NCBI GenBank assembly: GCA_965243555.1
Contig: OZ251575.1
Span: forward strand, 3,685,880-3,749,879
Length of the DNA stretch: 64,000 nucleotides
Direction of reading: 5' to 3'
Source of the DNA: Spirochaetia bacterium
GTDB lineage: Bacteria > Spirochaetota > Spirochaetia > SZUA-6 > Bin103
Shown here: one piece after another, positions 44,005-57,331 of the stretch
How the letters are laid out: each line of letters begins with the position of its first letter
Position numbering within the stretch: the first letter of the stretch is position 1
The notes under the pieces: model-generated
Seen by the model: the letters and a program-made list of their open reading frames with translations, nothing else
Told to the model about the DNA's origin: nothing
Databases searched by the model: none
Made by a program: the position numbers and the translations under genes

Positions 44005-46947
44005 TCAGTCGTCGAGGAGGCCGAGTTCGCGGAGGGGCTCCAGGACGTTGTGCTCCAGTTTGGCGGAGTCGAGGGGGCCGGCCGGGTTGGCGGCCTTGAT
44101 GCTGATGGTGACTTCGCCGGCCAGTTCGGCGAGGTTGGCGAGGGCGCGCCACGCCTCGTACAGCTCGCCGCTGCCGGCGGTGAACGAGATTGCCACGTCG
44201 CCGGCAGTTCCGGGGGCGGAGCGCGGGGGATCATCGGGACCGCCGGCGGTTCCGGTACCGGCGCCGGTGGGTTGGCGGACTTCGCCTCCGGTGGCGGCAA
44301 TGCCCTGCAGCGTCTGCGCCGGCGCGGGACCGCCGGCCCCGGCCCCGGTCGCGGTCGGGACGGCCGGCGCTGGCGCTACGGCGGGTTTCGGCAGCGCGGC
44401 GGGCAGGATGAGGAAGCCGGAGTCGAGGTCGATCTCGTCAGCGGCAACGGCGCGCTCGAAGGCGATGCGGCTGCGGTCAAGGCGGTAGCGGCCGTCCTCG
44501 CCGAGTGGCGGGCGGGCGGTGGCGTAGCCGAACAGGCCGGTCTCCACGCCGCGGGCGATGGCGGCGCGCACCACGCCGGTGGAGCGCAGGCGCGGGAAGC
44601 CGAGGAACGAGAAGAAGCCGGCGACCACCTCGGCGGTCGGGATGCCGGGCGCGGCGCCGTCCCGGCCGACGTTGAACAACTCGATGATCTTGCCCGGCGC
44701 GACGGTGTCGAAGACCAGGCGTCTCACCTCCGCCAGCAGCTCCATCAGCCGCTGGTGAATCAGGGCGTGCTTGCCGGCGCCGAGGGTGTTCCGCAACGGG
44801 CGCCCGCCCATGGCGACGGTTTCCAGGACAAGCGCGCCGGCGCCCGACTCCGGCAGCAGCACTGCCGCGTACAGCCCCAGCAGCGCCGACTCGGCGGCGG
44901 TCTCCTCGGTCGCCGCCCGCTCCTTGAGCTGGCTGCGCTGCGCCGCGGTGAGGTTGTGCTGCCGCGACCGTTCGCGCACCTGCTCCACGGCCAGCGCATA
45001 GCGCACCGCGCGGCGCAACCCCCGGATGCGGTCCGGGTCGGGCACGGCGAGCGCCAGACCGTTGCGGTACTCGCGCGCCCGCGGTCCGTGGTTCTCGCAC
45101 AGATCGCGCGCGGCCGCCTGCTGCTCGGCCGCAGAGCCGGCGGCGAACTCCAACGGCAGGTAGGCGATCAGAAAACGCGCGTCGCGGTCCGGCACGTCGG
45201 CCGAGCGCTCCGGCCAGATGATGGCCGGCTGGCCGGCAAGCCGTTCTTCGATCAGCGCCCGGATGCGGGCGCGCACGCGGCCCTCGTCCCGCGCGTCCGC
45301 CTCCTGCTCGACCAGCAGCGTCACGTTGGGGTCGCGCTTGAAGCAGTAGCGCGCGCCGTCGAAGTGGAGATACAGGCACTGCTCCCGCAGCTCCTTGAGG
45401 CACGCCTGCGCGGTGGTGCTGTCCAGGTCGGGACCGATGCTCACCCCCAGCAGCTCGGACTCGGTGATGCCGGGGGGCAGCGGGTCGCCCTCATCGTCAT
45501 CGCTCCCCGCCCGGCGCAGCCCGCCGAACGAGTAGAGCAGCATGATGGTCGCCAGGCGGGTGGCCGGTTCCCTGCCGGCCTCCGACGTCACCTCCCGCGC
45601 GCGCCGCCGGTCGATGCGCGGCGCGCGCGCGTTGCCGCCCACGAAGTCGTGCTCCAGACACGCCTGAAAATCCTCCCGCTGCCCCACCTCCTTGAAGAAC
45701 GCGAGGCGCACCTCGGCGTCCCGCAACGGCACGTCGCCGGGGCCGAGCAGCAGGCGCGACCGGCCCGCGCGGTGCGCGGCGCGCAGGCAGGCCGCCAGAA
45801 AGCGCAGGGCGCCGCGCGTGCGCTGGAAGTCCGGCACCGCCGCCCAGCGTTCCCGCATCAGGTCGATCAGCGCGGGATGAAAGGGGTAGGCGGCGCTGAT
45901 CCGGTCGCGCAACGCCATGCCTTCCTCCTCCGCCTGCCGCCGTTCGGCGTCGCCCTGCGCGTACGCCTGCCGCATCCGCGTGAACACCTGCCGGTACGCT
46001 TCGGCCACGCTCCCCGCGGCGTTCGCGTCCGGCGCCGCGGCCAGCAGCCGCCGCCGGATCACGTGGAGGATTTCGTTGCCGGCGACCGGCTCCCGCCGCT
46101 GGTCCTTGCGGGCGGCCAGGTGCTCGACGGTCTGCAGCAGCCCCGTGTACTCAAGCGACTCGCGCGCGCTCGACTGCAGCGAGTACACCAGCACCGCGTC
46201 ATCGACGGCGCCGACCGCCACGGTGAGCCGCTTCAGGAACGACAACGTCTCGTCGCGCAGGGTGGTCTGGCCCACGCGCACGCCGCCGGCGCTGATCAGG
46301 TATTCCAGGATTTCATCGAGGAGGATGAGGCTCGGCCCGCGCCGCAGCAGCTCGATCAGCACGTCGCCGCCGGGCGCCACGCGCGCTTCGTCCTGGCGCC
46401 GCAGCAGGGCGTAGCCGCCCGCCCCGCCGAGCGCCCAGCCGATCCATCCCCAGATCGTGCGCGCCGTCACCTCCGCCTGCGGCGCGCGCTTGCCGGCGGT
46501 GGCGTCGAAGAGCTGGCCGTCCACGACCGCCGCCCGCACCCGCTCCGGGCGCGGCAGGCCGGCCGCTTCCGGCAGCGCGGCGAGCGCGTCCCGCGACCGG
46601 GCGGCGTGCAGCAGCGCGGCGAGCGTGTGCGACTTGCCGCCGCCGAACGGGGTCATCAGCTTGAGCACGCGGTTGCCGCGCGCGCCGGCCAGCCGGCTCA
46701 GCACGTCGTCGAGCAGCGAGCGCAGCCCGGCGGTGAGGTAGGAGGCGGCGAAGAAGCTGCCGGGGTCGCGGTAGACGGCGGGCACGCGCGGCAACTCGGC
46801 GTCCGGCGCGCCCCGCTCCCTGCCGGTCAGATAATCGGACAACGCCCCCAGGTCGAGCGCGAATACGTCGTCGGAAAACTCGTCCGCCAGGACGTCCGGG
46901 TGCAGGGCGGCGCATTCGATCCAGGGCCGTAGCGGCGTGCCGTTCAT
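44005..46947 (-). CDS. DUF499-family ATPase (component of the DUF499/DUF1156/helicase restriction-modification-like system)
   Basis: 980 aa. Walker A-like 'KLMTPFGGGKSHTLAAL', Walker B 'SLILLDEILEY' and an Ala/Pro/Gly-rich linker before the C-terminal domain. Adjacent to the DUF1156 methyltransferase. Confidence 0.7.
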   Translation of the reverse strand: MNGTPLRPWIECAALHPDVLADEFSDDVFALDLGALSDYLTGRERGAPDAELPRVPAVYRDPGSFFAASYLTAGLRSLLDDVLSRLAGARGNRVLKLMTPFGGGKSHTLAALLHAARSRDALAALPEAAGLPRPERVRAAVVDGQLFDATAGKRAPQAEVTARTIWGWIGWALGGAGGYALLRRQDEARVAPGGDVLIELLRRGPSLILLDEILEYLISAGGVRVGQTTLRDETLSFLKRLTVAVGAVDDAVLVYSLQSSARESLEYTGLLQTVEHLAARKDQRREPVAGNEILHVIRRRLLAAAPDANAAGSVAEAYRQVFTRMRQAYAQGDAERRQAEEEGMALRDRISAAYPFHPALIDLMRERWAAVPDFQRTRGALRFLAACLRAAHRAGRSRLLLGPGDVPLRDAEVRLAFFKEVGQREDFQACLEHDFVGGNARAPRIDRRRAREVTSEAGREPATRLATIMLLYSFGGLRRAGSDDDEGDPLPPGITESELLGVSIGPDLDSTTAQACLKELREQCLYLHFDGARYCFKRDPNVTLLVEQEADARDEGRVRARIRALIEERLAGQPAIIWPERSADVPDRDARFLIAYLPLEFAAGSAAEQQAAARDLCENHGPRAREYRNGLALAVPDPDRIRGLRRAVRYALAVEQVRERSRQHNLTAAQRSQLKERAATEETAAESALLGLYAAVLLPESGAGALVLETVAMGGRPLRNTLGAGKHALIHQRLMELLAEVRRLVFDTVAPGKIIELFNVGRDGAAPGIPTAEVVAGFFSFLGFPRLRSTGVVRAAIARGVETGLFGYATARPPLGEDGRYRLDRSRIAFERAVAADEIDLDSGFLILPAALPKPAVAPAPAVPTATGAGAGGPAPAQTLQGIAATGGEVRQPTGAGTGTAGGPDDPPRSAPGTAGDVAISFTAGSGELYEAWRALANLAELAGEVTISIKAANPAGPLDSAKLEHNVLEPLRELGLLDD

Positions 46948-46962
46948 CGTACTCGTACTCCC

Positions 46963-56700: not shown

Positions 56701-57331
56701 GTTCCCACGGGTTGAGCGTCTGCCCGCGGTCGTTGGCGGAGTCGATGATCGGGAACGGTTCGTTGAAGAAGCGCAGCAACTCGTCCTGCCACTGGATGGT
56801 GAGCGGCGCGGGAACCAGGATCAGGCAGCGCTCGATCGCCGCGCGCAGCTTCAGTTCCTTGATGAGGAGGCCGGCCATGATCGTCTTGCCGGCGCCGGGA
56901 TCGTCGGCGAGCAGGAAGCGCAGCCGCGGCTGCGGCAGCATCTTGCGGTACACCGCCTCGATCTGATGCGGCAGGGTGCGGATGCCGGACAGGCTCACCG
57001 CGAACTGCCGGTCGTAGGCGTGGGCCAGCCGGATGCGGGCCGCCTCGACCAACAGCCGCAATCGGTCGGCGTCGACCGGCTGCGCCGTGCGAGGGGCGTC
57101 CGCTTCGCCCGCCGCGCCGAACGCCGCCGCGGCTTCCGCGGCGGAAATCACCGCCTCGTCGAGCGTGCCGTCGGGCAGGCGCACCCGGCATTCGTAGCCG
57201 GCGGAGCCGTCCGCGCCGAGCGCCCGGACCGCTTCCAGGACAACCGGCCCGTCAAAGTGGCCCGGCAGGGAAATACGGCGCCCGGCGAGGCGCGATGTAT
57301 CCCCCACCGCACGTGCCGCCAGCGTGTCCAC
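53756..57331 (-). CDS. SNF2-family helicase with a C-terminal DUF3780 domain (third component of the DUF499/DUF1156 system)
   Basis: GTG start at 57331 beside the divergent AT-richer intergenic region. 'LLADDPGAGKTIMAG' (motif I), 'DLVIIDEAHK' (DEAH), 'LLLTATP' and 'QRLGRIHRIGQ' (motif VI). C-terminal 'TNEWYRAQQLGDTYWLYVVWDP' matches DUF3780. The track ORF extends spuriously to 58687. Confidence 0.75.
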   Translation of the reverse strand: MDTLAARAVGDTSRLAGRRISLPGHFDGPVVLEAVRALGADGSAGYECRVRLPDGTLDEAVISAAEAAAAFGAAGEADAPRTAQPVDADRLRLLVEAARIRLAHAYDRQFAVSLSGIRTLPHQIEAVYRKMLPQPRLRFLLADDPGAGKTIMAGLLIKELKLRAAIERCLILVPAPLTIQWQDELLRFFNEPFPIIDSANDRGQTLNPWERESQVIASIDYAKRDEVRERVWRQRWDLVIIDEAHKCAAFTKRAAGRGDEIERTMRYQLAERLSEHADNLLLLTATPHHGDDDRFAHFIRLLDRDLFPEPHRFGAAAGAIRRDVLRLGDDCPWALRRLKEDLKDGHGRRLFPDRRVGTVSFELGPEEYAVYQAVTAYINEFLPHASGRRKNSVALVRTVFQRRLASSTRAIHESLRRRQGRLRDLLADLERLPPAARARRLAQLAGRRTDPEQDEDDLDDDARDQLTGEVTALVELDHLRAEVAALDELAARVGRVRAGGRDSKLRALRECLERAEFAELQDGRGKLLIFTEHRDTLDYLREHLEAWGYSTCAIHGGMNPQERRRTQDAFLTGRQVCVATEAAGEGINLQFCHLLINYDLPWNPTRLEQRLGRIHRIGQARDVYAFNFVAASSEDGQPVIEGRILERLLSKLERMRSALGDRVFDVVGEVLALNRIDLPEMLREVAYEPRRLETYLDEIEQVDPRLLEQYEDASGIALARAHVDFPAFAQANLEAEERRLMPRYVESHFLNAAAAVGQRVEARADGLWRIVRVRAELRSERLASVRRLGKPEGGYRKLTCYKEHLEQAAHQDAVLLGPGHPLYGAMDEKMQELLRELVGRTAVYVDAAAEAPYRLHFYEIAVRGHAPGGGAAVVHAELVAVREETGADGDAGYCVAPADALLDLPAHPQPPAALPEADLRPIDDYVKATVQMERRRDAQRERGRYADVAREYLEKSFTARRRAAQDRVMDLRARERSEPQVALARQQAERELEDLQRTHAGRLAGIERLRVARHGPARRLASCLVLPPDAAGAGGAPGDAAGEPDARLRQRIERAAEDVVIAYEESRGRECTRVGHQKIGFDVRSLAPPDAQTGYRDPVAGVRRIEVKGRRRGRPIRLTTNEWYRAQQLGDTYWLYVVWDPLDAPAPRPLMIRNPARRLDHAKQEAALSRYYDVPAAAIEQAAREQEEECA

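Follow-up and report, generated by a model that had tools for sequence, protein, structure and literature searches.

Hma defence systems (Payne et al. 2021, PADLOC; PMC8565338) correspond to the Type-1 DUF499-centred BREX-related (BR) systems, for which both an architecture and a model of action have been published (NAR 2026, PMC12839542). Type-1 is defined by a helicase with a C-terminal PD-(D/E)xK nuclease, which also carries an N-terminal TUDOR domain and an internal inactive restriction endonuclease (REase), and Type-2 by a standalone DUF3780 gene (PMC12839542). In Halomonas, the NOV_C nickase and the helicase of HmaA are both required for T4 defence, and residues D1084, E1104, K1106 and E1121 are essential for nickase activity as well as for T4 defence (PMC11232893). 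Hma systems frequently host other genes. Embedded genes are carried by 62.7% of 1,485 Hma systems, and 22.8% of the embedded genes belong to known defence systems (Payne et al. 2024, 10.1101/2024.01.29.577857); Liu et al. 2024 (PMC11232893) likewise found insertions in ~66.5% of Hma systems, with a hotspot between hmaA and hmaBC. Interruption of an hma operon by other genes is therefore usual and no anomaly. Here we describe such a locus in a 64,000-nucleotide stretch of DNA from a Spirochaetia bacterium (GenBank assembly GCA_965243555.1, contig OZ251575.1, positions 3,685,880 to 3,749,879 of the forward strand), which we call the window. We think it quite probable that the locus is a functional Hma restriction-modification-like system that holds a dead Gabija system and two inserted Uma2 genes at its hotspot. 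The system itself has been described already; what sets this copy apart is that the embedded Gabija has decayed and that the cargo is stacked.

Genes were assigned by Pfam and PADLOC profile searches, motifs were checked in the translations and, the window being ~70% GC, codon-position GC was used to tell real genes from spurious long open reading frames (ORFs). The three core genes are as follows.

44005..46947, minus strand: hmaC, DUF499 AAA+ (ORC/STAND-like) ATPase, 980 amino acids (aa)
46963..49770, minus strand: hmaB, DUF1156-type N6-adenine DNA methyltransferase, 935 aa
53756..57331, minus strand: hmaA, Swi2/Snf2 helicase fused to a C-terminal NOV_C PD-(D/E)xK nuclease, 1191 aa

A first-pass annotation of the window had placed three genes at exactly these positions, with DUF499 and DUF1156 'DPPY' proteins in the first two, and had read them as a DUF499/DUF1156/SNF2 restriction-modification-like module; all of this agrees with our assignments, the module being the published Hma/Type-1 BR system (PMC8565338, PMC12839542). 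The hmaC product matches Pfam DUF499 (1.6e-27) and PADLOC HmaC (4.5e-98, the model match spanning residues 6-811), with a Walker A motif, GGGKSH, at residue 102 and a Walker B motif, LILLDE, at ~207. The hmaB product matches Pfam DUF1156 (7e-9), N6_N4_Mtase and PADLOC HmaB (4.6e-107), and has DPPY at residue 518 and the S-adenosylmethionine motif FAGGG at ~118; comparison with homologues points to the GTG at 49746 as its probable real start. HmaA is matched by PADLOC HmaA (4.8e-185) and by Pfam SNF2-rel_dom, ResIII and Helicase_C, with helicase motifs GAGKT at 146 and DEAH at 242, and its C-terminus is a NOV_C domain (PF13020, a PD-(D/E)xK nuclease; 3.8e-16). The nuclease residues D1082, E1106-x-K1108 and E1122 line up with D1084/E1104/K1106/E1121 of Halomonas HmaA (PMC11232893).

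The three genes are collinear on the minus strand in the order A...B-C, with a gap of 15 bp between hmaB and hmaC and with hmaA ~4 kb upstream of hmaB, across the embedding hotspot. HmaA, HmaB and HmaC can be aligned with homologues along 97-100% of their length, without frameshifts or stops and with all checked catalytic motifs kept, and the genes retain a strong codon-position GC bias. The proteins and their order are those of Hma/Type-1 BR systems, most of each PADLOC Hma model is strongly matched, and the DUF499 ATPase is without a HEPN fusion in both. The locus is thus an Hma, i.e. Type-1 BR, system with an intact three-gene core, and because all three genes are full length with intact catalytic motifs, the core is probably functional.

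The start of hmaA at 57331, also given by the first-pass annotation, merits comment since the minus-strand frame stays open to 58687. We rejected the reading in which the resulting 1643-aa ORF (53756-58687) is an HmaA extended by a novel N-terminal domain. The high-GC codon position shifts phase at ~57300, residues 1-452 of the long ORF are without a Pfam match, and the opposite strand is taken up by a hydantoinase gene, so the start at 57331 should be right to within a few codons. Within the N-terminal ~100 aa of HmaA, the alignment with homologues begins at residue 17.

Two further expectations about the core proteins came from the first-pass annotation. Its assignments of DUF499 and DUF1156 stand, but the DUF3780 domain that it placed at the end of the SNF2 helicase does not: the C-terminus there is NOV_C, and neither DUF3780 nor PLDc matches HmaA, in full or at its C-terminus, at E<=1. 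The same two families are absent from the other ORFs of 49796-58687 (E<=0.01 to 1) and from HmaB and HmaC (E<=0.01). The window therefore differs from a Type-2 BR system (HKD-helicase plus standalone DUF3780), with which it has the DUF499 ATPase, the DUF1156 methyltransferase and the Snf2 helicase in common, in being without a DUF3780 gene or domain and in having a helicase without an HKD nuclease. The annotation had also remarked on an unusually long Ala/Pro/Gly-rich linker in the DUF499 protein. The linker is present (65 aa, A/G/P-rich, residues 852-916, ahead of a small C-terminal domain), but its length is hardly unusual, since all 10 of the 10 aligned HmaC homologues carry a low-complexity linker of ~45-55 aa, rich in G/D/E/S/T, at the same position, which makes it a family feature. 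By its length and composition, the linker in the window is modestly longer and shaped by high GC content; it has ~15-20 aa more and is rich in A/P/G where theirs is rich in G/D/E/S, the one difference we found between this core and that of Hma/Type-1 BR systems.

The helicase gene was said to be separated from its partners by ~4 kb of other genes, and so it is. The contents listed for the interval, a UvrD-like helicase, two Uma2 genes and an AAA-ATPase fragment, are likewise all present, but a gajA remnant was missed. It lies beside hmaA, followed by the UvrD-like gene.

53655..53765, minus strand: gajA remnant, the first 28 codons running out of frame into the final 12
51722..53644, minus strand: gajB, UvrD/Rep-type superfamily 1 helicase, 640 aa, full length

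Gabija consists of GajA and GajB (Doron 2018, Antine 2024). The UvrD-like helicase is identified by its profile match as the GajB of an embedded Gabija cassette: PADLOC GajB PDLC00114 covers its whole length (3e-207), Pfam UvrD-helicase matches at 2.5e-63, and it has GSGKT (Walker A) at residue 35 and DEFQD (motif II) at 229. Its orthologues stand in canonical gajA-gajB operons. GajA, an OLD-type ATPase-TOPRIM nuclease, is by contrast cut to 28 + 12 codons in the window, so that what remains is not a Gabija system. Searches by tblastn with the GajA proteins of three related loci (L001, L002, L041) found residues 1-28 only (53765-53682, 82-93% identity), with no GajA-length match elsewhere in the locus, and the 36-codon remnant ORF is matched by Pfam AAA_15 over positions 1-29 only (2.9e-5). 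The GTG start of gajA overlaps the hmaA stop (GTGCGCATAA), as in L002, the 10-nt overlap being kept; after 28 codons, the reading passes, with a frame offset of two nucleotides, to the final 12 (FREAVGDLRGLR*), and the overlap of the gajA stop with the gajB GTG start (GTGA) is kept as well. Junction alignments place a ~1.8 kb deletion of gajA at a GTTC(G/C) microhomology, at ~53682/53683. Since Gabija defence in vivo requires both GajA and GajB, and since GajA forms the nuclease core of their 4:4 complex (PMC10781630), the embedded Gabija is very probably inactive and its GajB orphaned. GajB is probably still translated, since the TGA of the remnant ORF overlaps a Shine-Dalgarno-like GAGGGGG and the gajB GTG follows ~10 nt downstream.

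What the hotspot held before the deletion can be read from related loci. A scan for GajB with one genome per species yielded 80 loci, mostly in metagenome-assembled genomes (MAGs) from many phyla; the hosts include Vicinamibacterales, Gemmatimonadota, Rhodothermales, Spirochaetia, Gammaproteobacteria, Latescibacterota and a Nitrosopumilaceae archaeon. This neighbourhood analysis of the UvrD-like gene, a comparison that the first-pass annotation had proposed with DUF3780 helicases in mind, returned 11 loci with Hma gene order, and the partner gene in the cassette proved to be GajA. In those 11 loci (L001, L007, L012, L013, L015, L020, L021, L041, L046, L048, L056), overlapping or abutting genes run HmaA-GajA-GajB-HmaB-HmaC, and the gene between HmaA and GajB encodes a protein of ~637 aa that matches PADLOC GajA PDLC00062 (8e-251) and has an OLD-like TOPRIM domain. 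More widely, GajA lies directly upstream of gajB in 41 of 58 related loci. The order in the 11 relatives and the identity of their GajA show that the ancestral state of this lineage was a complete Gabija operon between hmaA and hmaB.

The closest relative is L001 (73-78% identity), where an insertion sequence (IS) element with a DDE transposase (DUF772, DDE_Tnp_1; 13387-14829, minus strand) interrupts hmaB. The GajB of the window is 78% identical to that of L001 and 61% to the others, and HmaA 76% against 74%; the Gabija cassette and the Hma frame may therefore have different histories. Hma remnants occur in 14 of the 58 related loci, and partial GajA genes in 11. Among L002, L003, L004, L009, L010, L014, L017, L035, L036 and L045 (at ~7300-12400), many have a stand-alone-looking Gabija flanked by short HmaA/HmaB remnants, and in several, independent deletions with differing breakpoints join an N-terminal piece of HmaA to a C-terminal piece of GajA. 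Such remnants at Gabija loci, together with the differing breakpoints, indicate that the Hma-Gabija composite has been eroded repeatedly. GajA is lost with GajB kept in 17 of the 58, from which we did not conclude selection against GajA: the loci were found by a GajB search and form a biased sample, and the asymmetry may be an ascertainment bias of GajB-anchored sampling. The composite is seen at ~74% HmaA identity across MAGs of many phyla (L001-L067), the majority seemingly from sponge symbionts; the 11 loci with the full order are likewise mostly MAGs of seeming sponge association. Several of the bin names among the GajB loci are ones that we take to come from sponge-microbiome studies. The distribution of the composite suggests horizontal spread within one habitat, apparently that of sponge symbionts.

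In the relatives gajB directly meets hmaB; in the window, 1.95 kb lie between them, with the following contents.

~49796..50647, minus strand: Uma2a, Uma2-family PD-(D/E)xK putative endonuclease
~50860..51055, minus strand: AAA_14/DUF4143-type ATPase fragment, ~65 N-terminal codons, truncated pseudogene
51075..51665, plus strand: Uma2b, canonical Uma2-family putative endonuclease, opposite to the hma strand and convergent with gajB

Both Uma2 proteins score above the gathering cutoff of Pfam Uma2 (PF05685), which is 27 bits: Uma2a at 59.3 (4.2e-16; PADLOC PDC-S03 5.7e-10) and Uma2b at 116.9 (8.9e-34 over profile positions 3-171 of 172; PDC-S03 1.9e-34), and both show PD...E-x-(S/K) motifs. Codon-position GC supports the plus frame of Uma2b. 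Uma2a ends 26-50 bp upstream of hmaB and has a C-terminal Ala/Glu/Arg-rich extension that derives from three 63-bp (21-aa) tandem repeats at 49855-50054, a tail that is unusual for the ~190-aa Uma2 family. The ATPase fragment has the Walker A motif GPRQVGKTT within MVFVGGPRQVGKTT; it matches PADLOC PDC-S01 (9.5e-6, over positions 12-49 of the 422-position profile) and, below cutoff, Pfam AAA_14 (0.0011). PDC-S03 is a PADLOC phage-defence candidate, one of a set compiled from genes found inside BREX, DISARM and type I restriction-modification systems (10.1101/2024.01.29.577857).

This segment has a history of its own. Comparison with the canonical order shows A...B-C kept. The Uma2 genes and the AAA_14 fragment were found in none of the 80 related loci, which hold no homologue of either Uma2a or Uma2b. 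A metagenome scan for Uma2b gave another 80 loci, of up to 70% identity, and none of these has a homologue of Hma, GajB, Uma2a or the ATPase fragment beside it; similarity of Uma2b to its relatives ends at the gene boundaries. The 1.95-kb segment is thus a lineage-specific layered addition rather than a conserved accessory module, and its Uma2 genes would function independently. We looked for terminal repeats, direct or inverted, at the insert (49.8-51.7 kb): apart from the internal 63-bp repeat, the matches were short and at chance level, and no mobile-element signature was seen there; the window has no tRNA gene that could mark an integration site. In metagenomic contigs (L091, L113, L116), homologues of Uma2b also form arrays, with 3-4 copies in 12 kb.

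Set against published Hma systems with embedded cassettes (Payne et al. 2024, "guilt-by-embedding"; Liu et al. 2024, the insertion hotspot), the locus likewise has foreign genes between hmaA and hmaB, and its cargo likewise consists of known defence (Gabija) plus PADLOC candidates (the PDC-S03 Uma2 genes and the PDC-S01-like fragment). It differs in that its Gabija is degraded, with gajA deleted, and in that the cargo is layered: Gabija, then the AAA_14 gene, then the Uma2 genes. Layering of this kind suggests that insertions and deletions have occurred at the hotspot more than once.

If the 1.95-kb segment were more than an addition, the extra genes could be recruited accessories, as the first-pass annotation had offered: the orphan GajB and one or both Uma2 proteins would cooperate, or act with HmaA/B/C, and a Uma2 would replace GajA as the nuclease partner. 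Nucleases within BR loci have been proposed as backup effectors (PMC12839542), GajB is intact, it shows no rate acceleration and its Shine-Dalgarno-like GAGGGGG is kept after the remnant ORF. Moreover, other loci without GajA have a different gene at gajB: in L019 a PLD nuclease gene (9006-9998) overlaps the gajB start, in L028 and L032 an endonuclease/exonuclease/phosphatase-family (EEP) protein (9030-9806) is encoded directly upstream of it, and in L038 a HATPase_c_3 + HSDR_N protein (1452-3539) is. Swapping of GajB partners, to go by these neighbourhoods, may occur. These alternative partners, however, sit upstream in the place of gajA, where the window has only the 36-codon remnant. In none of the 160 related loci (80 GajB- and 80 Uma2b-anchored) does either Uma2 adjoin GajB or Hma; Uma2b is on the opposite strand, Uma2b and the dead AAA fragment lie between gajB and Uma2a, and homologues of Uma2 tend to be multi-copy, with as many as 4 in a 12 kb locus. 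Recruitment is therefore not favoured, and we think it improbable: the extra genes look like independent cassettes at the known hmaA/hmaB hotspot, with Gabija complete in relatives. We hold it similarly unlikely that helicases of the GajB clade are modular sensors or motors with interchangeable nucleases and that selection has kept the GajB of the window together with a Uma2 or the HmaA nuclease; were it so, the locus would hold a Gabija-derived hybrid inside Hma and not a dead remnant.

The first-pass annotation had alternatively pictured the module as being eroded by insertions. Erosion there is, but it struck the embedded Gabija, with the deletion of gajA, and the Hma core is full length with its motifs intact. 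A stronger form of this idea is that the whole module is decaying, the insertions having split the operon and left Hma already non-functional and heading to pseudogenisation with its neighbours. The neighbourhood is indeed rich in debris (the gajA remnant, the AAA stump, truncated hydantoinase genes hyuA'/hyuB', a second DUF1156 stump and a truncated PD-Lambda-5_A-like gene), relatives have the partial Hma remnants and the IS in hmaB noted above, and Uma2b lies antisense inside the former operon. Against these stand the near-complete alignments of HmaA, HmaB and HmaC, their freedom from frameshifts and stops, the kept motifs, the still strong codon-position GC bias and the tight spacing of Uma2a, hmaB and hmaC on one strand. 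We consider decay of the Hma core to have little probability.

A functional Hma system with a dead Gabija and two inserted Uma2 genes thus remains our preferred reading, and it would work along the lines of the Type-1 BR model. By homology, HmaB, the DUF1156 N6-adenine methyltransferase, would mark self DNA; HmaC, the ORC/STAND-like ATPase with a variable C-terminal domain, would scan for or recognise invading DNA and assemble the complex; and HmaA, Snf2 translocase and PD-(D/E)xK nickase, would move along foreign DNA and nick or cut it, producing restriction. The hotspot first held a complete gajA-gajB operon that was translationally coupled with hmaA and hmaB. A microhomology-mediated deletion of ~1.8 kb has taken out gajA, and a separate insertion of ~1.95 kb between gajB and hmaB has brought in two unrelated Uma2 genes and the AAA_14 stump. 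Uma2a, hmaB and hmaC, tightly spaced on the same strand, are probably one transcription unit, whose transcription Uma2a probably supplies or shares; hmaA, the gajA remnant and gajB would form a second. So read, the locus is a natural snapshot of turnover at the hmaA/hmaB hotspot, in which a Gabija loses its nuclease gene while Uma2 candidates arrive alongside, and it is useful for tracing how defence islands change over time; the mechanism is not new.

Several observations weigh against this account. GajB is 60.8% identical to ten outgroups, compared with 61.3% for its L001 orthologue, and so shows no accelerated divergence (for HmaA the figures are 74.3% in the window and 77.0% in L001); this would fit a recent deletion, and would equally fit retained function. 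Uma2b lies antisense between gajB and hmaB, a position that may break up the ancestral operon and lower hmaBC expression. A scan of this 70% GC sequence for sigma-70 promoters and terminators gave no usable signal, with 3 terminator-like sites where 6.4 were expected. Finally, in Halomonas HmaA alone gave defence and the methylation role of HmaB was not demonstrated (PMC11232893), so the restriction-modification logic is still a model.

The Hma genes are part of a ~26 kb defence island (33589 to ~59450), and the window has one further candidate outside it. The other features are these.

33589-41760, plus strand: Ssp-like phosphorothioation cluster, SspA (6e-129), SspB (1e-101) and SspC (1e-283), then a PLD nuclease
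42150-43860, minus strand: PD-Lambda-5-like pair, with a D12 adenine methyltransferase (PD-Lambda-5_B, 5e-45) that looks complete
57389-58546 (57347-58546 for the hydantoinase fragment as a whole), plus strand: hyuA' (truncated hydantoinase A; Pfam Hydant_A_N 1.7e-58, Hydantoinase_A positions 1-86 of 291) and hyuB'-like start
59260..59454, minus strand: second DUF1156 methyltransferase remnant, ~65 N-terminal codons (Pfam DUF1156 1.9e-14, PADLOC HmaB 3.2e-8)
19064-20191, plus strand: ABC-type ATPase (PADLOC PDC-M38A 6.7e-77, AbiLi 5e-42)

On the left side of the island, the Ssp-like cluster lies in a low-GC stretch (0.58-0.61), and its SspC, of 1704 aa, is fused at the C-terminus to a HATPase_c_3/MzaB-like domain; no SspD/SspE-type protein was found among the ORFs scanned. 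The PD-Lambda-5_A-like partner of the D12 methyltransferase is only 265 aa long and covers positions 14-173 of the 473 in its model, so that it may be truncated.

The right edge of the island, to judge from its gene fragments, is a zone of deletions. The hydantoinase debris on the plus strand shows the minus-strand ORF upstream of 57331 to be spurious. The hydantoinase B-like start comprises ~58 codons (58314-58490), judged from the translation only, and is followed by non-coding, low-GC DNA of ~0.7 kb. The second, divergent DUF1156 stump lies shortly downstream of an alcohol dehydrogenase gene; it is 40% identical to HmaB residues 14-77 (tblastn) and is probably left over from a BR/Hma-type system that occupied this site earlier. 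Outside the main island, the ABC-type ATPase at 19064-20191 may, on its PADLOC matches, be a further defence gene; it lies in a local GC dip (0.62), and its neighbours are without PADLOC matches.

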